Shown piece by piece: positions 4,860 through 41,017 of a DNA stretch of 48,065 nt. The DNA lies in the NCBI GenBank assembly GCA_046316935.1, contig JBKCXA010000347.1:1-48065 (forward strand). The letters run 5' to 3'. The notes beneath the pieces were generated by a model. It saw only the letters and a list, made by a program, of their open reading frames with translations. It was not told the origin of the DNA and did not search any database. The translations under genes were made by a program, and so were the position numbers. How positions within the stretch are numbered: position 1 is the stretch's first letter; the number at the start of each line of letters is the position of its first letter. The DNA comes from Prosthecobacter sp. (GTDB taxonomy: Bacteria > Verrucomicrobiota > Verrucomicrobiia > Verrucomicrobiales > Verrucomicrobiaceae).

Positions 4860-6506
4860 TCACGCCCGCCGCGTCTCCTTCGCCAAATCACGAAACTTCA
4901 CCGCCTCGGCACTCAGCTCGGCTTTGTCTCGCATCTGCTGCGTGGAATACGGGAAGCGGGTGCGCCAGTTGGCATCGCTGACGACGCCGGGGACGTTGAA
5001 GCGGTCGATCATGCTGAAGAGATCGGTGATCATGATGGCGGCGTAGCGGCTGGCGCTGGCGAGCAGGCCGCGCATGAGCTGCCATTTGATCGTGTCGTTG
5101 TAGGGCGGGTAATCGCTGGTCGGCGGCATGCTGGCGAATTCGGCGAGCAGGCGCAGCTCGCGACCAGCCTTCATGCGGTCCTCGTGCTCGTGGGCGTGGT
5201 GCATGTTGTGGCGGCAGCCATCCCAGATCGCGGCCATCGGCGGGTGATCGTGCGTGGCGTAGGTGGTGAAGCTGCACTCGTCGTAGGTGAGGCCGGAGAT
5301 GGCCTTGTCATCGGGCGTGACCTCCCACTGCGGCACTTTGAAGCCGGGAATGCCGCGTTCGAGCAGGTGCGGGCGCACATAGTCCGGCACCGCGCCGAGA
5401 TCCTCGCCCACGACTTCCGCCCCCTGAGCGGCGTCCTGGATCATGCGCAGGTATTTGTCGCCCGCGGCGCGATTGGCGGCGCAGTGTTCCGGGGTGTCGT
5501 CCGCGTGCTCGATGTAATGCGGCAGCGGGCCGCCGGTGCGGGCTTTGGCTTCTTCTTCGGTGAGCGGGAGGAATTCGGCATTGCGCTGCGGACGCCACGG
5601 GAAGCCGTAGATGCGGTAAAAGCCGAGCACGTGGTCGATGCGGAAGATGTGGAAGACATCGGTGAGCTTCGCGATGCGCTGACGCCACCAAGCGAAGCCA
5701 TCCTGCTCCATCACATCCCAGCGGTAGAGCGGGATGCCCCAGTTTTGACCCCACTTTTGGACGAAGAGATCGTCTTTGAAGATCTTCTCCGGCGGAGCGC
5801 CGCCGCTCCAGCCGAGGTCGAAGAGGTGCGGATTCGCGAAGACATCGGCGCTGTAATAGTTCACGCCGATGGGGATGTCTCCCATGAGGCGCACGCCGAT
5901 CTTCGTGCCGTATTTGTTCAGCTCCCGCCACTGCGTGAAGGCGATCCACTGCACCCACGCAGGGTAGGTGGCCTCCGGTCCGTCGGGATCGACGCTGCTG
6001 CGAGCATCGGCGGGCCAGTGGTCCCAGAGTTCGTTGCCGTGCTTGTCGATCAGCGTGCGGAAGATGGTGTAATCCTTCAGCCATGCGGCCTCCGCCTTGC
6101 AGAAGGTGGCAAAGGCCTTTGCGCGGGTTTTGTTTTTGCCAAAGCGGGAGAAGGCGAGCTGGAGGAGCTTCGTCTTTACGCGGCGTGCCGCGGGGAAGTT
6201 CACCAGATCGCCGCTGAAGTCCTCGCCCGCCTTCGCGGCGGCTATGTCGGCGGTGGTCAGCTCCGGCAGCGTGTAGAGTGAGATTTCCAACAGCACCGGA
6301 TCGAGCGCCACGGAGCTGATGGCGTTGTAGGGGCTGTTGTCGGGGCCGGTTTCGTTGATGGGCAGCAGTTGGACAAAGCCGATGCCATGCTCCGCCGCCC
6401 AATCCATCAGCTCCCGCAGCGCCCGGGTATCGCCAATGCCGAAGTCATGGTCATGGCGGAGAGCAAAAACAGGCGCGAGGATGCCGGCGGAGCGTTTGGG
6501 ATTCAT
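4860..6506 (-). CDS. malQ: 4-alpha-glucanotransferase (amylomaltase, GH77)
   Basis: Motifs QLLPIN...SPY, GDIPIGV, GQNWGIPLY, FRIDHVLG, VGEDLG, ATHDH, NVPG. Confidence 0.95.
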   Translation of the reverse strand: MNPKRSAGILAPVFALRHDHDFGIGDTRALRELMDWAAEHGIGFVQLLPINETGPDNSPYNAISSVALDPVLLEISLYTLPELTTADIAAAKAGEDFSGDLVNFPAARRVKTKLLQLAFSRFGKNKTRAKAFATFCKAEAAWLKDYTIFRTLIDKHGNELWDHWPADARSSVDPDGPEATYPAWVQWIAFTQWRELNKYGTKIGVRLMGDIPIGVNYYSADVFANPHLFDLGWSGGAPPEKIFKDDLFVQKWGQNWGIPLYRWDVMEQDGFAWWRQRIAKLTDVFHIFRIDHVLGFYRIYGFPWRPQRNAEFLPLTEEEAKARTGGPLPHYIEHADDTPEHCAANRAAGDKYLRMIQDAAQGAEVVGEDLGAVPDYVRPHLLERGIPGFKVPQWEVTPDDKAISGLTYDECSFTTYATHDHPPMAAIWDGCRHNMHHAHEHEDRMKAGRELRLLAEFASMPPTSDYPPYNDTIKWQLMRGLLASASRYAAIMITDLFSMIDRFNVPGVVSDANWRTRFPYSTQQMRDKAELSAEAVKFRDLAKETRRA

Positions 6507-6585
6507 AGAAGAGCCGCGATGATGCGGTGGACGGCCTCAGATGCAAATGGCGTGCCGGGTGTTTGGTGAATTGGAGAAGGGGAGC

Positions 6586-6636
6586 GGCGAAGCCGGTCAA
6601 GGAGTCAAGGCTTCGCCGGTCAAGGCTTGGTCAAGG
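6586..6636. repeat. Short repeat cluster: 4x GTCAAGG with GGCGAAGCC/GGCTTCGCC hairpin
   Basis: GTCAAGG at 6596, 6604, 6619 and 6630; inverted 9-mers at 6586-6594 and 6609-6617. Confidence 0.7.
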
Positions 6637-6672
6637 TGAGCACCGACAGGCTTTTGGAACCAACGGGACGAG

Positions 6673-6721
6673 CGGAATCGGCGATTGCACGGACAAAGCT
6701 GGCGGGGCATTTTTCGAGATG
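6673..6721 (+). promoter_or_regulatory. Repeated promoter-like module, copy A (TTGCAC-17nt-CATTTT-5nt-ATG)
   Basis: 41/49 identical to 7885-7933 by manual alignment; ends at the ATG of the 6719 ORF. Confidence 0.75.
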
Positions 6722-7105
6722 CATAAGTTTTTGCCTGCATTCTCGTTCCTGGCCGTCTTGGCGCTTGGTAGTTGTGATCCTGCCCCACGGTGGATCAGCG
6801 GAAACTATGAGGTTTACGCGATTGATGATTCTCAACTCCTCAAGTTTGGAGTCGATATTGGAGGTGGCACTCTAGCTCTCGTCCGTCCCAAGGTAGTCGG
6901 TATTGGAGAGGATGAGCGTTGGATCGTTGTCGAAAGGCATCTCGACGGAGATCAGACGAGGCCTGAGTTCTACTATTTGGAGAAGCTCGACGTCATCGAT
7001 CAACGGAATGGCAAGGACGTGGCGCATGGGCCGTTTCCACAGGCAGAAATGACCCAGAAAAGAGTCGAATTGAAGCTCCCTCCGATAAGTGAGCGGTTTG
7101 ATTGA
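6719..7105 (+). CDS. Hypothetical lipoprotein (DUF3997-like)
   Basis: MHKFLPAFSFLAVLALGSC lipobox-type signal; 128 aa. Family resemblance is tentative. Confidence 0.75.
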   Translation: MHKFLPAFSFLAVLALGSCDPAPRWISGNYEVYAIDDSQLLKFGVDIGGGTLALVRPKVVGIGEDERWIVVERHLDGDQTRPEFYYLEKLDVIDQRNGKDVAHGPFPQAEMTQKRVELKLPPISERFD

Positions 7106-7145
7106 ACAGTCGGCGGTAACTAACCCTACAACCAATCCATCAACT

Positions 7146-7730
7146 ATGATCGACCAGATCAATCAGACGCTTGCGCTTGTCAAAGACACCACAGATGCAA
7201 ACGCCATGTGGCCTCACTTGATCGATATCTGCCGTCGTGTTCATCCAGATCTTCCATGGCATGAAATGCCATCGCCTGAAGTGCAGCTTGATCTGCACGA
7301 GGGATGGCTGTGGCTGCAAAACGATCTCAGCGAACACGATGAAGCGGTTGGCATCTATCTCGGTCTGGACACGTTGAACATGCAAGGTGGCAGAGGCACG
7401 AATATTGAGTTTGGAGCCACATCAGAATGTGATCCGAATTCAGGCAGACCTGATTGGGCCTGGGATGCAGCGTTGCACTATGGCTCACGTCATTTAATCA
7501 AAGGATTGGTTGGGATGCGGGCCTGTTATTCGCGTCCAGCATGGCGAGAATCTCTCGAATTGTGCGACTATGTGTTCTTCCTCGGTTACTCAGGCATGAT
7601 CTTGGCAGAGGTATTCGAGAGTTTCACCCTGCCGCGCACCTTGATGCCAGTGTGGGGGTTCCACGACGGCGATCTGTTCACACTGGGGCGCTATCAGAGC
7701 GGGGAATTCACGAGATTGTGCGCTGGATAG
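7146..7730 (+). CDS. Hypothetical protein (cassette cargo)
   Basis: 194-aa ORF from ATG 7146 after an A/C-rich leader; ends with WGFHDGDLFTLG; no family recognised. Confidence 0.75.
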   Translation: MIDQINQTLALVKDTTDANAMWPHLIDICRRVHPDLPWHEMPSPEVQLDLHEGWLWLQNDLSEHDEAVGIYLGLDTLNMQGGRGTNIEFGATSECDPNSGRPDWAWDAALHYGSRHLIKGLVGMRACYSRPAWRESLELCDYVFFLGYSGMILAEVFESFTLPRTLMPVWGFHDGDLFTLGRYQSGEFTRLCAG

Positions 7731-7768
7731 ATTTGCCATCTTTGCAGAGGAATCCTTGACCTTTGGCT

Positions 7769-7859
7769 TTACTCCCCGCCCGCAAACAGCGTCCTGAGCT
7801 CCTCTAGCACTTCACCCTCCGCACACACCTCGGTGAGGTTGGCGATGGCGGAGGGGATG
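7769..7859 (-). pseudogene. Diverged duplicate of the amgK 3' end (copy 1)
   Basis: 85/91 nt identical to 9176-9266; encodes IPSAIANLTEVCAEGEVLEELRTLFAGGE*. Confidence 0.95.
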
Positions 7860-7884
7860 GTGCCCTTTGAACATCTGGAAGACT

Positions 7885-7933
7885 CGGAATTGGAGATTGC
7901 ACAGACAAAACAGGGGGCGCATTTTTCGATATG
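7885..7933 (+). promoter_or_regulatory. Repeated promoter-like module, copy B
   Basis: CGGAATTGGAGATTGCACAGACAAAACAGGGGGCGCATTTTTCGATATG; homologous to 6673-6721; ends at the ATG of the 7931 ORF. Confidence 0.75.
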
Positions 7934-8281
7934 CTTCCCATCATCTTGCTCGTCCTTGGCTGCGCGTATCTGGCTCTGAAAGCAGTGGGTTGGCGTCGAA
8001 AGCGGAGATTGGCCAAAGATGGCTACGTTTTCGATTTTGTGAGTCCCAGTGTTCTGCGTGGAAATGACAACGAATACGCTTTCGTCTATCGGACCCGTGA
8101 TCACGAGGTTTGGTTCGTGGGCATACAAGATCACACCCCGCTCTCACCTCGATTCGGTGACCATTCAGAGAAGTCTCAAATGTTTTTCGAAGAGAATCGA
8201 AAGCTGATCATGGACAGGCTGCGGCACGAAATTCAATCGAGATGGACCAAGGCTCGTTTTCGTGTCGAGGATGAACCATAG
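7931..8281 (+). CDS. Hypothetical membrane-anchored protein (cassette cargo)
   Basis: N-terminal TM segment MLPIILLVLGCAYLALKAVGW followed by basic RRKRR; 116 aa; start coincides with the shared promoter module. Confidence 0.72.
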   Translation: MLPIILLVLGCAYLALKAVGWRRKRRLAKDGYVFDFVSPSVLRGNDNEYAFVYRTRDHEVWFVGIQDHTPLSPRFGDHSEKSQMFFEENRKLIMDRLRHEIQSRWTKARFRVEDEP

Positions 8282-8329
8282 GCCGTTTTTGAAACAGCAA
8301 TTGCTGTTTCGCTGGGTAGTCAGCGCCAG

Positions 8330-8414
8330 CGTCTTGGAGTGCGCCGGCCCTCCGGCGCTTTCGAGTGGTCCAAGGCACACGGAAAGCTCCAGAGGGCTGG
8401 AGCACTCCAGGACG
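8330..8414. repeat. REP-like inverted repeat pair
   Basis: cgtcttggagtgc-gccggccctccggcgc-tttc ... gaaa-gctccagagggctggagc-actccaggacg; each arm has its own internal hairpin. Confidence 0.8.
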
Positions 8415-8449
8415 GCAAGCGCTCTTGGATGCCATGCAGCGATTCCAAC

Positions 8450-8601
8450 CTACACCCGGCCCGCAAACAGCGTCCTGAGCTCCTCCAGCGCCTCCCCCTC
8501 CGCACACACCTCGGTGAGGTTGGCGATGGCAGCGGGGATGTGCTGCTCGAAGTGGGGTTTGCCGAGGCTGCGTAGGCACCGAGGACCAGCATGAGGCACT
8601 G
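8450..8601 (-). pseudogene. Diverged duplicate of the amgK 3' end (copy 2, with 13-nt deletion)
   Basis: 116/123 nt identical to 9176-9298, then loss of actgaggttggcg, then 29 nt of further homology; encodes ...SLGKPHFEQHIPAAIANLTEVCAEGEALEELRTLFAGRV*. Confidence 0.95.
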
Positions 8602-8651
8602 CCAAGGATTCACGCATCTTGAGTTTGGCTAGAATGCCTCGAAAGTGGCGA

Positions 8652-9161
8652 ATGACATGGAAATGCCAGATTTGTGATTCGGTCCACGACGAGATGCCAA
8701 CGTGCTTTGGCTGCGAAGCTCCGTGGAGAGAACTCGTGGAGTCTGAGCAGGAGTTTGAGCAGGAGTTTGAGCAGAGAGTCGAACTCACCCGCGACCAATG
8801 TGTCGTGGATGAAAAACACTTCTTCATTCGAGGACATTTGGAGATTCCCATTCTGGGACGCTCTGAAACTCTGGCGTTGGCAGTTTGGTCATCTCTCAGC
8901 GAAACAAGCTTCTTGCATATGACAGGCCGGTGGAATGACGCCGACAGGGAAAACGATCCACCCTATTTCGGATGGCTCAGCTCACGACTGCCTTTTTATC
9001 CTGACACTGTGAATCTGAAACTTTCGGTGCAAAGCCAGGCACCTGGATGGGTTCCCCTTTTCACCACGGAACCGACAAATCATCCACTCTCGGTCGATCA
9101 GCATCAGGGCATCACCATCGAGCGCTGGCATGAACTCGCCCACAGCTTCATGGGGCATTAG
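8652..9161 (+). CDS. DUF2199 domain protein (cassette cargo)
   Basis: N-terminal WKCQICDSVH, D.CVVD..HFFIRG.LEIP, WSSLSE.SF, YFGWLS..LP.YPDT, HPL..DQ..GIT. Confidence 0.82.
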   Translation: MTWKCQICDSVHDEMPTCFGCEAPWRELVESEQEFEQEFEQRVELTRDQCVVDEKHFFIRGHLEIPILGRSETLALAVWSSLSETSFLHMTGRWNDADRENDPPYFGWLSSRLPFYPDTVNLKLSVQSQAPGWVPLFTTEPTNHPLSVDQHQGITIERWHELAHSFMGH

Positions 9162-9175
9162 TCTTTCGTTCATCC

Positions 9176-10168
9176 CTACACCCCGCCCGCAAACAACGTC
9201 CTGAGCTCCTCCAGCGCTTCACCCTCCGCACACACCTCGGTGAGGTTGGCGATGGCGGCGGGGATGTGCTGCTCGAAATGGGGTTTGCCGAGGTTGCGAC
9301 TGAGGTTGGCGTAGGCACCGAGGGCCTGCATGAGGCGCTGGGCGGCGCAGAGATAAAAGACCTCGCGCAGCTCCGCGAGGTCGAGGCCGCGATGGGTGGC
9401 GTAGAAGCTGAGGAGCTGGTTGCGCTCGGTGCGGGTGAGGGTGACGTAAGGATCGTAGAGCAGGCTGGCGAGGTCGTATTCGGCGAGGCCGAGGCGCAGT
9501 CCCTGGTAATCAACGAACCAGGCGTCTTCGCCGCGAATGAGGACGTTTTGACTTTGGAAATCGCGATGCACGAGGCACCTCGGAAGACGTGCGAGGCGAC
9601 GGCGGAGACGGCGCAGCGTCTCGTGGGCAGCGTCGAATTCTTTGTCGAGAAACTCGCGACCTAGGAAACCGCGGACGTAGTGATCGAGGAAGTAGTTTTG
9701 CTCCCACTCGTAGAGCGCCTCATCGAACTCCGGCTCCAGCTCCGCGTGATCCGTGCGGGTCAGGGCATCCTCGGTGACGCCGTGGATCTTTGCCGCCTCG
9801 CGGAGCGTGGCCTCATAAAGCGGTTGGCGGTCGCTCCAGGGGCGCTCGCGGAAGCTGTGCAAGTCCACGCGGCCGAGATCATCCAGCCAGACGCAGAGAC
9901 GCTGCTCGTCAAAGGCCTGAATGCCGGGCACATGCACGCCGAGCTTCGCGAGGCGTCGGGTGGCGGGGACGAACTTCGGATTGTCACGCCGGGCCATGGT
10001 ATAGACCATCAGGATCATCGGGGCGTGGGCGTCGCTGGCCCAGTTCAGTCGGTAAAAATGCCTGTCCGAGCCGCCTTTGACGATGGGCTCGACCTCGCAC
10101 GCGAAGTCACGGAGCGCCGGAAATTGCTCGCGGGTGAGGATGAGGAGCGCTTCGTGTTCGGGAGGCAT
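9176..10168 (-). CDS. amgK: APH/choline-kinase-like phosphotransferase, AmgK (anomeric MurNAc/GlcNAc kinase)-like
   Basis: GGSDRHFYR, LDDLG, LVHRDFQSQN, VDYQG..G..EYDLASLLYDPY, QRLMQALGAY; directly downstream of a murU-like gene. Confidence 0.8.
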   Translation of the reverse strand: MPPEHEALLILTREQFPALRDFACEVEPIVKGGSDRHFYRLNWASDAHAPMILMVYTMARRDNPKFVPATRRLAKLGVHVPGIQAFDEQRLCVWLDDLGRVDLHSFRERPWSDRQPLYEATLREAAKIHGVTEDALTRTDHAELEPEFDEALYEWEQNYFLDHYVRGFLGREFLDKEFDAAHETLRRLRRRLARLPRCLVHRDFQSQNVLIRGEDAWFVDYQGLRLGLAEYDLASLLYDPYVTLTRTERNQLLSFYATHRGLDLAELREVFYLCAAQRLMQALGAYANLSRNLGKPHFEQHIPAAIANLTEVCAEGEALEELRTLFAGGV

Positions 10169-10292: not shown

Positions 10293-11213
10293 TTAGAAAT
10301 CGACGTCCTCGAATGTGCCGGCGGCGGTGACATTTGAACGCACGATGCATCGCGTGAGGCGGGCGCCGGTGACGACGCGGGCGTGGGGCCAGAGGATGCA
10401 GTCCTCGAGCTGGCAGCCGGGCTCGACGGTGGCTCCGGGGCCGATGACGTTCGTGCGGCGCAGGATGGCATCGGGGGCGACGTGAGCCTCGGGATGAATC
10501 GCCGGGCCGTGCATGCCATTGAGGGCGGCGTGGGCGGCGAGGTATTGCGTGCGGCTACCGAGATCCCACCACTGGCCTTCATCGAGCACCACCGCGCCGA
10601 CTTTGACGCCGCGACGGATCATTTCGAGGAAGATGGGGATGACGGACTCGACCTTGCCCGGCGTGAGCCAGTCGTGGATGGCGGTCGAGCAGGCGTAGAT
10701 GCCGGTGAAGAGGTGCGTGCCTTCATCGCCGGTCTCGAGCTTGTTGCGGATGTCGGTGACGCGACGACCCGCCGCATCGTAGGCGATGTGCAAGGCCGGC
10801 CCGTGGCTGCGCAGAGCGAGCGTGATGATGTTCCCGCTGCGCTGATGCTCCTCGATCAGCGGGGCGAGCGGGAGGTCCGTGAGGATGTCGCCATTGTAAA
10901 CGAGGAAGGGCTCGTCGTGGAGCAGGTCGCGCACGTTGGCGATGCCGCCGGCGGTTTCGAGGCGCACGGGGCTTTCATTGCGAAAGGCGATCGGCATGTC
11001 GCGGTAGCGATGGTCGGGAAAGGCCTTGTCGTATTCGCCGGGCAGGTGGTGCGTGTTGACAACGAGACGCCGCACACCGGCCGCATGCAGATGATCAAAC
11101 GCATGCGTGATGAGCGGTCGGTGGAAGACGGGGATAAGCGGCTTCGGGAGCTGCTCCGTCAAAGGACGCAACCGCTCGCCGAGGCCCGCGCCGAGAACGA
11201 AAGCCTGATTCAC
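10293..11213 (-). CDS. murU: Nucleotidyltransferase, MurU (MurNAc-alpha-1-P uridylyltransferase)-like
   Basis: AFVLGAGLGERLRPLT..LPKPLIPV, LETAGGI, VYNGDI, WWDLGS, short C-terminal hexapeptide-like region; GTG start preceded by TTGCGC-17nt-TAGGAC. Confidence 0.75.
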   Translation of the reverse strand: MNQAFVLGAGLGERLRPLTEQLPKPLIPVFHRPLITHAFDHLHAAGVRRLVVNTHHLPGEYDKAFPDHRYRDMPIAFRNESPVRLETAGGIANVRDLLHDEPFLVYNGDILTDLPLAPLIEEHQRSGNIITLALRSHGPALHIAYDAAGRRVTDIRNKLETGDEGTHLFTGIYACSTAIHDWLTPGKVESVIPIFLEMIRRGVKVGAVVLDEGQWWDLGSRTQYLAAHAALNGMHGPAIHPEAHVAPDAILRRTNVIGPGATVEPGCQLEDCILWPHARVVTGARLTRCIVRSNVTAAGTFEDVDF

Positions 11214-36278: not shown

Positions 36279-36417
36279 CCGGCTTAAACCCATCAATGTG
36301 CCTTTAATCATACAAAGCCAGATGTTTGCCAATTCAATCATCCGTCACCACCAGAGAACCGAGGTCAGAGGACTTCCGCATGAATTCCTCGATCGGGCCA
36401 AAGTTGGGGATCTCCCG
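36279..36417 (-). pseudogene. Degenerate duplicate of the 3' end (plus ~25 nt downstream) of the 39839-41017 glycosyltransferase
   Basis: Reads EIPNFGPIEEFMRKSSDLGSLVVTDD*IGKHLALYD* versus KIPNAGPVEVFMRKSSDLGALALMDDCIRKHVALYD*; about 93/114 nt identical to 39839-39952; internal TGA. Confidence 0.9.
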
Positions 36418-39662: not shown

Positions 39663-39838
39663 GGGATGGGTGAGGTGGAAAGAATGAGATGGGAGCCACG
39701 GCAGAGGTGCTAAGCGGTTCGAGGCCCGGCAGTGCCGTGGTGCGGCACAGCCCAAGGCGCTGTAACTCGGGCGGAAGCGCTGGGAAACTCCTTTGGTGGC
39801 GGAATTGGTTCGACCGGTTTGCGCTCATCAATGGGCTT

Positions 39839-41017
39839 TTAATCATACAGAGCCACATGTTTGCGAATGCAATCATCCATCAGCGCCAGAGCACCGAGGT
39901 CGGATGACTTTCGCATGAAAACCTCGACCGGGCCTGCATTCGGGATCTTCCCCGCATACCAGCTTTTGCCATACTGCTCGATCTTTTGGCCGGCCTCTTC
40001 AAAACATCTGGAAGCGTCCGCCTCTTCAAAGTGCTCTTTGAGAGTCTCCCCGAGTTTGGCGAGAACCATCAAAAAGTCGCTTCTTTGAAGCGCGTCATCG
40101 TGCGGACTGGCTGAGTGCCCGAGGCTTGCTGCCATGGCTTCCCTTCCTATCCAGAACATCGGCAGAACCACATGATCCCCCCAGACGACCGAGCAAAACG
40201 CCTGTCCCATCTCAATCAGATCCGGACGTCTTATGAACACCTCCTTCGGGATGGCGGGAAGAACCCGGCAGAAACAGTCTTTCGCAGCAGCGGTGCGCTG
40301 TAACGCATAGAAGTTGTTCATATACAGAGTGGATTGCTGGGCCAGCCTTTGCGCGGCGTTTTCCCCCTTCACCCGGTAGCTTTTGGCAAAAAGATGTCCC
40401 GCGCTCCAGCATGGCATCCGGTTTTTGATCACAAAACCCGCATGCCAGCCCTGTGCGCTGGCGCACCCCGGGTTGCTCCGCATGTAAGCCAGGGCACCGA
40501 GGACGCCTTTCACTGAGATGAAATCATCATCGGCGGAGAAGAGCACATAGGGCGTGTCCACCAGTGACATGGCGTGACTGGCCTTTTCGGCAAAAGTGAG
40601 GGTTGGAAGATGAAGATAGTTCACCAGCCCGGGGATTCCCTTTGCATACGGAACACTCGTGGAGTCGAGCACCAGGATTTTTATGTTCCACCTACCGTAG
40701 TAACTGAGCGATCTCTCCAATCTCGAATGCCTGTTGTGCGTGGGTATGACGAGCGTGATCTCGGCCAGTTGATCGCTGGCCTCGTCTTTCTTGAGCCTGG
40801 CCACCGCCCGCTTCCGCCACCGACGCCGGATGGATTGCTGGAGCCGAGCATGATGGGCGGAACCCGGAAAACTGGCACCTCCCGCCTTCTCCTCCCATTC
40901 CAGCTTGAGATGATTGAAAGCCTGGATCATCCGAAGGCGCTGCTTCCTCACATAGGAAAACAATCCCAAAATGAGCGCCAGGATGAGGAGGCTGTTGATG
41001 AGAAGGAGGAGTTGCAT
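39839..41017 (-). CDS. Glycosyltransferase (GT2-like, TIGR00180-type)
   Basis: N-terminal TM; ITLVIPTHNR..RLERSLSYY, ILVLDST, TPYVLFSADDDF. Confidence 0.78.
   Translation of the reverse strand: MQLLLLINSLLILALILGLFSYVRKQRLRMIQAFNHLKLEWEEKAGGASFPGSAHHARLQQSIRRRWRKRAVARLKKDEASDQLAEITLVIPTHNRHSRLERSLSYYGRWNIKILVLDSTSVPYAKGIPGLVNYLHLPTLTFAEKASHAMSLVDTPYVLFSADDDFISVKGVLGALAYMRSNPGCASAQGWHAGFVIKNRMPCWSAGHLFAKSYRVKGENAAQRLAQQSTLYMNNFYALQRTAAAKDCFCRVLPAIPKEVFIRRPDLIEMGQAFCSVVWGDHVVLPMFWIGREAMAASLGHSASPHDDALQRSDFLMVLAKLGETLKEHFEEADASRCFEEAGQKIEQYGKSWYAGKIPNAGPVEVFMRKSSDLGALALMDDCIRKHVALYD

Follow-up and report, generated by a model that had tools for sequence, protein, structure and literature searches.

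The interval between malQ and an amgK-like kinase gene of the freshwater bacterium Prosthecobacter sp., on the 48,065-nt contig JBKCXA010000347.1 of assembly GCA_046316935.1 (this whole stretch is called the window below), carries an array of four units, each made of a small accessory gene and, behind it, an amgK-like gene tail that is either a remnant or intact. The array is probably a stack of four successive RecA-type captures, made with no integrase, in which amgK alleles of close relatives arrived together with new cargo and were anchored by homology on one side only. The original prediction, made from the letters of the window alone, had read the interval as three tandem units anchored on repeated amgK 3′ ends. 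Its two gene-end copies and its units B and C stand, whereas its unit A falls into two, because an 8-nt third remnant (7126-7133) splits cargo A1 from cargo A2 and brings the total to four; only 12 nt lie between this remnant and the ATG of A2. An upstream module had also been assigned to every unit. Such a module precedes A1 and B (84% identity over 50 nt, 6673-6722 / 7885-7934), whereas C has a 48-nt leader of its own. The cargo open reading frames (ORFs) have a GC content of 0.50-0.53 vs 0.64 in the flanks.

Both larger gene-end copies lie where they had been predicted. Copy 1 (7769-7859) is identical to the last 91 nt of the gene at 85 positions, and three of its six differences are silent if the TAG/TAA change of the stop codon is counted. 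In copy 2, the segment 8450-8572 agrees at 116 of 123 positions, with five of the seven differences synonymous; beyond 8572 a 13-nt deletion is followed by renewed homology up to 8601, and the whole copy corresponds to the final 165 nt of the gene. Both copies end at the amgK stop codon and share a CTG codon where the gene has TTG, again as first described, and neither has a further match anywhere in the 5.9-Mb assembly. Silent changes exceed the expected 24% in the copy 2 segment (5/7, p=0.010) and over both copies (8/13, p=0.004). Seven of the 13 copy-versus-gene differences are found in intact amgK alleles of kin (9 other alleles), and four of the six private ones are non-synonymous. The three types of terminus, Leu-TAG, Glu-TAA and Val-TAG, each occur as an intact terminus in relatives. 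Copy lengths at amgK vary (8, 91 and 165 nt here, about 127 nt in relative G096), with no constant att crossover point.

Layers of the array match alleles of relatives

We detected amgK in 101 of 104 other genomes of the genus and examined 40 of these loci, several of them short. Full-length malQ adjoins amgK in five of the 40, all within a close clade (88-95% DNA identity in amgK), where the interval measures 354, 738, 1522, 1919 and 7025 nt, against 2670 nt here; it is thus no invariant interval, in line with the proposal of a serial capture site. At least eight unrelated cargos occupy it (A1, A2, B, C, D, E, F and an SMI1/KNR4 protein), and cargo in malQ-amgK intervals always faces amgK. 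Copies of a genome's own amgK end were found at two of the 40 loci (G096 and G055, both of the close clade) and at the JGI locus L044, and at none of the 33 loci outside the close clade; on these 40 loci a genus-wide amgK array was rejected.

Individual layers could be matched to individual relatives. Copy 1 together with the 288 nt downstream of it, including the 3′ part of A2, is 96% identical over 379 nt to the intact amgK end of G105, the Glu-TAA terminus included; in G105 the A2 tail stands directly behind amgK and is followed by a deletion into the malQ spacer. The intact end with C has its counterpart, at 90% identity, in G111 and G100. Copy 2 with its spacer and a REP-like (repetitive extragenic palindromic) repeat matches the intact end of G055 at 82.6% over 281 nt, the repeat itself being dispersed. 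A1 and its tail also match G055, where the tail runs on into a decayed amgK copy of ~84 nt; the 8-nt stretch is recognisable as an amgK remnant because the same A1 tail enters this longer copy, and the window and G055 diverge immediately past it. The earlier idea that the copies are gene ends of other functional alleles is supported by the G105 match and by the differences shared with kin.

The leader of C aligns with the G111 allele at 35 of 53 ungapped positions, a score reached by 0 of 2000 shuffles, and the homology stops at the copy-2 joint. This is the only joint with a donor-type allele, and at 66% likeness it is too diverged for a microhomology of 3-10 bp to be read. B brings a second copy of a module that otherwise stands on the malQ side of the locus, and both this module and the C leader suggest that the incoming fragments came from this very locus in kin. 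In G096, G055 and L044, cassette D and its copy stand ahead of older cargos that differ in all three, a sign that the copies may recombine. The intact amgK gene is itself a patchwork across clade members, with four-fold divergence minimal at codons 271-300 (0.10, against 0.25-0.39 over codons 31-240). Alleles were compared by difference counts, the last 90 nt offering too few sites for a tree, and in one alignment the row of the intact G096 gene was disregarded for its wrong coordinates.

The shared cargos are under purifying selection (dN/dS, the ratio of non-synonymous to synonymous rates, 0.20-0.24). A1 is identical to the G055 cargo at 92 of 128 aa (dN/dS 0.24), and A2, whose 3′ part lies behind intact amgK in G105, gave 0.23. 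The DUF2199 gene C is frameshifted in G111 and G100. A homologue of B was found in one of the 104 other genomes (G082, 55%), at a different gene junction. In the ESM Atlas, A1 and A2 fall into hypothetical clusters only; DUF3997 occurs in 26% of one cluster and is a lead only.

At G111 and G100 (L021, L022) a decayed 5′ malQ fragment follows the cargo about 0.9 kb downstream of amgK, and in G111 the intact malQ lies 6 kb past that fragment, a 5′-end counterpart of the scar. At L025 (G082) a run of 7-nt tandem repeats breaks the contig about 230 nt past the amgK stop. Deletions of 10-50 nt recur on the joint-proximal side of copies at amgK (window, G055, L044), pheT (C80) and gltD (G055), and the stop-proximal part of these copies remains near intact alleles.

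A proposed one-anchor route of gene capture

In the capture model, the incoming DNA would be a fragment from a relative whose amgK is followed by a different small gene. At its amgK end the fragment would pair with the resident 3′ end by homology, and the far end, cut just upstream of the cargo, would join a point inside amgK without homology, either by homology-facilitated illegitimate recombination (HFIR) or through a single crossover after trimming and circularisation; the data do not discriminate between these two routes. Resident amgK would remain intact, whereas its former tail and the cargo attached to it would be displaced towards malQ, additions having presumably come in the order A1, A2, B, C. 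Displaced tails would then decay through point changes and short deletions, and they probably act as second homology arms by which layers may be swapped or lost. A recA gene lies in the window and comEC in the genome, in keeping with this model. The model covers stacking only and leaves the first entry of a foreign ORF into the interval unexplained.

Several points weigh against it. The allele nearest to copy 2 is the resident one (7 differences vs 9 or more elsewhere), and copy 1 is marginally nearer to G105 than to the resident (5 vs 6 differences), so that allele trees alone are no proof of donor origin. Gene conversion after the event could also yield the silent excess, and the excess is weaker at eight other anchors of the genome described below (15 synonymous and 20 non-synonymous codons). 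Four-fold divergence of amgK is low at codons 1-30 too (0.135). Among the relatives we found no donor identical to any layer, C being only 90% identical to G111 and G100, and the G105 state may derive from excision between repeats. The two copies of a gltD-like gene start almost alike (-52 and -51). The presence of comEC is no proof of competence. Finally, classical HFIR is stated, in the portion of the E. coli study drawn on here, mostly to delete rather than to duplicate (PMC3240628).

The same scar behind other genes

To count such scars, we sought the last 60 nt of each of 2795 ORFs again within 4 kb downstream. Gene ends recurred at score >=25 for 12 of the 2795, compared with 2/2795 for a mid-gene probe (p=0.013) and 0/2359 for the same end probe searched upstream (p=0.0007); gene starts searched upstream gave 3/2359 (p=0.066), a control weakened by crude start calls. 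At score >=20 there were 15 hits, of which inspection dropped six and kept nine, the controls not having been curated likewise. Those kept are amgK, pheT, a gltD-like gene, ahcY, a class III aminotransferase, an MFS transporter, DUF885, a uvrD-like helicase and a BNR-repeat gene, with copies of 26-230 nt. Among their cargo are toxin-antitoxin pairs and DUFs, and Y1-transposase-like ORFs were met at the gene-end locus C866 and at C641, a less certain candidate. We dropped C948 and C526 for long paralogy, C658 and C678 as likely spurious ORFs sharing a repeat, C22 for a short tandem repeat, and C347:39839 for an ambiguous multi-gene spacer. In the window, a 126-nt repeat (82%, 36291-36416 / 39826-39951) at the 3′ end of a 392-aa ORF encloses three glycosylation-cluster genes.

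Eight further genes of the genome likely owe their scar to the same capture route. A search for gene-end duplications besides amgK had been proposed with the original prediction, which had also cast a housekeeping gene end as the anchor of capture; serial capture at amgK is supported, but amgK is not a special anchor, because eight other genes show the scar. With five relatives examined per anchor, copies occurred in 2/5 for pheT, 1/5 for gltD, and 0/5 for both ahcY and the aminotransferase. In G055 the gltD-like copy is followed by the same DNA as stands behind the intact gene of G105 (90.8% over 1515 nt), and the gltD locus of G105 is the empty site for G055. A second gltD-like fragment lies upstream of the G055 copy and suggests that the shared copy start came from a deletion between short repeats. 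A metagenome pattern scan returned only 4 loci. We regard it as a tentative and rather doubtful extension that the freshwater clade runs a genome-wide, recombinase-free cassette system at housekeeping 3′ ends, in which, after duplication of a tail, gene-to-tail cargo would be an autonomous unit able to excise, circularise and re-enter any allele by RecA alone, arrays would grow, shrink and trade layers between species in the manner of integrons, and this would be a main path by which single genes are gained.

Genes that stand behind pheT, gltD, ahcY, the aminotransferase and the MFS transporter lie elsewhere in relatives of ~90% identity, so that these ends are synteny breakpoints too (L045-L049 vs G105, G096, G111, G108 and G055). 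On C45, an 84-nt gene-start copy (8507-8590 / 10901-10984) lies 2.3 kb upstream of its gene, with a spacer GC of 0.54, and looks like a 5′-end counterpart.

Alternative explanations

The copies could instead stem from the resident gene, either because the entry of foreign genes duplicated a long stretch of the resident end, the strict form of insertion with long target duplication, or because the interval was duplicated in tandem and one cargo then exchanged by double crossover. The proximity of copy 2 to the resident allele and the resemblance of every gltD copy to its own genome's allele fit this account, as do the variable long duplications across stop sites, with no other mobile element, in the part of Furuta et al. 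2010 considered here (PMC2853133). It does not explain why the C leader follows a kin allele as far as the joint, where there is no resident spacer, why the types of terminus differ and are each intact in some relative, or why more than half of the copy differences are kin alleles; we therefore consider it unlikely. A simple local duplication had been expected to leave copies closest to the resident allele and no synonymous bias: the first applies to copy 2, but the silent excess over both copies speaks against the second.

It is also conceivable, if quite improbable as the main cause, that hairpin repeats, either a GTCAAG doublet or REPs cut by a RAYT (REP-associated tyrosine transposase)/Y1 nuclease, make the breaks that admit a first cargo, which recombination at the anchor then spreads and stacks; this would be compatible with one-anchor capture. 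GTCAAG arms flank cargo F in L041 (1645-1690, 2286-2325) and, partly, A1-A2 here, where the right arm (7750-7768) has 16 positions identical to the left arm in a 20-column local alignment. A REP-like repeat (8323-8434) with a hairpin of -37.8 kcal/mol stands beside copy 2, and Y1-transposase-like cargo occurs at C866 and, less clearly, at C641. Yet no repeat marks the joints where the copies have their 5′ ends, the right arm was not found after most other alleles, and most GTCAAG doublets of the genome enclose no gene. An Rfam scan gave 2 chance hits and no family for the REP-like repeat. The GTCAAG family as a whole consists of dispersed intergenic tandem units in 45 clusters (among others on C23, C138, C157, C320, C386, C674, C756, C766 and C978), many of them inverted pairs, and its arms are split by an insert at the amgK locus and at C429 (about 460 nt apart).

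Erosion of integrative elements or integron cassettes, for which the amgK end would have been the attachment site used by a site-specific recombinase working in trans, appears very unlikely. The genome has 4 tyrosine-recombinase matches and, at a contig end, an N-terminal fragment resembling an integron integrase (C546:7-372, minus strand, below cut-off); that contig shows no attC-like pair, and GC falls to 0.47-0.55 in parts of the next 2 kb. Small hypothetical ORFs and toxin-antitoxin pairs are typical cassette cargo, and the cargo here is of these types; the shared start of the gltD copies would also suit a fixed site. An attC site has an inverse core after the stop codon and a core 40-140 nt later. 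In a motif scan, without an attC covariance model, 0 of 10 cargos had an integron core ahead of the ATG or an inverse core where the ORF stops, and no attC-like pair occurred within 6500-9200. None of the 52 window ORFs scanned belongs to a recombinase family, in agreement with the earlier statement that the window holds neither attC nor integrase, and the scanned cargos contain no integrase inside inserts, the Y1-transposase-like ORFs at two other loci being all that was met, and no restriction-modification family. Copy lengths scatter, and the shared gltD start can be referred to a deletion between short repeats, as suggested by the second gltD-like fragment.

Integrity of the assembled array

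We located 20 runs from 11 studies that contain the stretch or part of it and compared the contigs of 8 runs (7 studies). The Logan contigs of these runs bridge the joints A1-A2, A2-copy 1, copy 1-B, copy 2-C and C-amgK; the JGI contig L042 is 100% identical over 1112 nt, and L043 is 98.8% identical over 1089 nt, traversing C, copy 2 and the REP-like repeat into B. None of the contigs compared has the full array on one piece, and the assembly itself may derive from one of these runs or contigs. One run has a joint 6623 -> 9177 with unknown letters between, suggesting that an allele without this array exists there. A chimera of co-occurring strains with different cargo could be imagined from the 983 contigs of the assembly, the several alleles per run, the array-skipping joint and the missing full-length piece, but it is exceedingly improbable because contigs of independent runs bridge the joints, the copies show private decay (the 13-nt deletion of copy 2 is also present in run X9), and G096 and G055 carry arrays of their own. 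A 12-nt tandem unit in DUF2199 (8744-8767) is present in one or two copies depending on the run.

Layout of the array

The positions of all features are collected in Table 1. The anchor kinase is an APH-family match with a nucleotidyltransferase neighbour, and AmgK hidden Markov models score far below cut-off (62 vs 550 bits); amgK is therefore a provisional name, suggested by sequence. A leader related to the A1/B module also precedes cargo F in L041. A sigma-70 scan of the A1 module (6673-6722) returned 0 consensus sites, so its reading as a promoter is put forward with reserve.

Table 1. Features of the malQ-amgK interval and its flanks, with positions in the window.
Feature	Position	Strand	Basis
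malQ (4-alpha-glucanotransferase), left conserved flank	4860..6506	-	Pfam PF02446, E 4e-108
GTCAAG-repeat left arm, dispersed family often in inverted doublets	6596..6635	+	45 genome clusters
A1 upstream module, putative promoter, right before ATG	6673..6722	+	84% to 7885-7934
Cargo A1, 128 aa, no Pfam/NCBIfam family, presumed oldest layer	6719..7105	+	GC 0.51
amgK-terminus remnant, 8 nt, Gly-Leu-TAG type	7126..7133	-	Comparison with G055
Cargo A2, 194 aa, hypothetical family	7146..7730	+	192 homologues
GTCAAG-repeat right arm, truncated, abuts copy 1 stop	7750..7768	-	Alignment to left arm
amgK 3′ copy 1, 91 nt, Gly-Gly-Glu-TAA terminus	7769..7859	-	85/91 to resident gene
B upstream module, homologous to A1's malQ-side module	7885..7934	+	Sequence comparison
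Cargo B, 116 aa, no family	7931..8281	+	One genus homologue (G082)
REP-like palindromic repeat, dispersed in genome	8323..8434	.	Matches on 9 other contigs
amgK 3′ copy 2, last 165 nt, internal 13-nt deletion	8449..8601	-	Alignment to gene
Leader of C, homologous to G111 allele up to copy-2 joint	8602..8651	+	35/53 ungapped
Cargo C, DUF2199, presumed newest layer	8652..9161	+	PF09965, E 2e-42
Intact amgK-like kinase, array anchor	9176..10168	-	APH family; mosaic among 10 clade alleles

Comparison with known systems

Integrons and CALINs (clusters of attC sites lacking integrases) have attC/attI cores, an adjacent integrase in the case of integrons, and small ORFs in the same orientation with the newest at one end. 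The present array resembles them in its row of small accessory ORFs that all point the same way, the newest at one end, but it has no attC/attI cores, no fixed crossover and no adjacent integrase, and its spacers are pieces of a host gene; the term integron-like, applied to it at first, was thus an overstatement. The array works like a displacement array and by membership is neither an integron nor a toxin array. We class it as a stacked, housekeeping-anchored variant of two known phenomena, insertion with long target duplication and the arrays of type VI secretion system (T6SS) and Rhs/CDI (contact-dependent inhibition) loci.

One of these is insertion with long target duplication, for which work by Nobusato et al. 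from 2000 is reportedly the reference. In the sections of Furuta et al. 2010 drawn on here (PMC2853133), inserts lie between direct repeats of >30 bp and variable length with no other mobile element, the repeats frequently extend across a stop site without breaking the gene, the species are mostly competent, and restriction-modification genes are carried as cargo, which the authors link to double-strand breaks. The present case agrees in the direct repeat of >30 bp, the insert of <20 kb, the absence of another mobile element and the occurrence in a relative of an empty site with one repeat (G105 at amgK; G105 at gltD for G055). It differs from the cases in those sections in its cargo other than restriction-modification genes, its four stacked layers and its probable origin in fragments of the same kin locus.

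Stepwise displacement has been described for T6SS effector-immunity arrays of V. cholerae by Kirchberger et al. 2017, who, in the portion used here, proposed HFIR and compared integrons explicitly (PMC5361080). As in those arrays and in Rhs/CDI orphan arrays, a conserved anchor is retained, older modules are pushed back, intermediates occur in other strains and an integrase is lacking. Unlike the toxin arrays as outlined there, where the anchor is a toxin locus and the cargo its effector with immunity, the anchor here is the end of a metabolic gene whose C-terminus is retained, with cargo that is convergent to it and unrelated. As to polymorphic-toxin features, the anchor is a kinase, and in the cargos surveyed only that of one relative is an SMI1/KNR4 protein.

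Experiments in E. coli provide a further parallel. In the parts of Amarir-Bouhram et al. 2011 relevant here, trimming, circularisation and a single crossover gave anchor duplications of 109-950 bp (14 sequenced clones of a 56/60 class) and exceeded HFIR about 10-fold in frequency (PMC3240628). Partial duplication of the anchor gene, variable in length, is common to both; that system, as presented in those parts, is a plasmid construct and a single event, whereas here the events would be repeated and natural, with shorter tails. Neisseria minimal mobile elements (PMC1797815) and replacement or additive flexible islands (PMC5217437) likewise place alternative short gene sets between conserved genes, but the excerpts of these reports used here explain them by replacement or site-directed recombination and describe no stacked gene-end copies. 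In the open-access literature we found no direct description of stacked housekeeping gene-end arrays; closer cases may sit in Supplementary Figure 7 of Furuta et al.

How single small genes enter hotspots without mobile elements is an open question, and natural HFIR has been argued mostly from toxin loci. The window adds a non-toxin locus with four layers, of which three have matches among present-day alleles of kin, together with a scar that can be counted genome-wide against controls, and these two properties make one-anchor gene gain directly testable. Defined as the last 30-230 nt of a gene repeated behind a mostly low-GC insert, the scar can be counted in any set of genomes, and the linkage to donors can be read from strain data.

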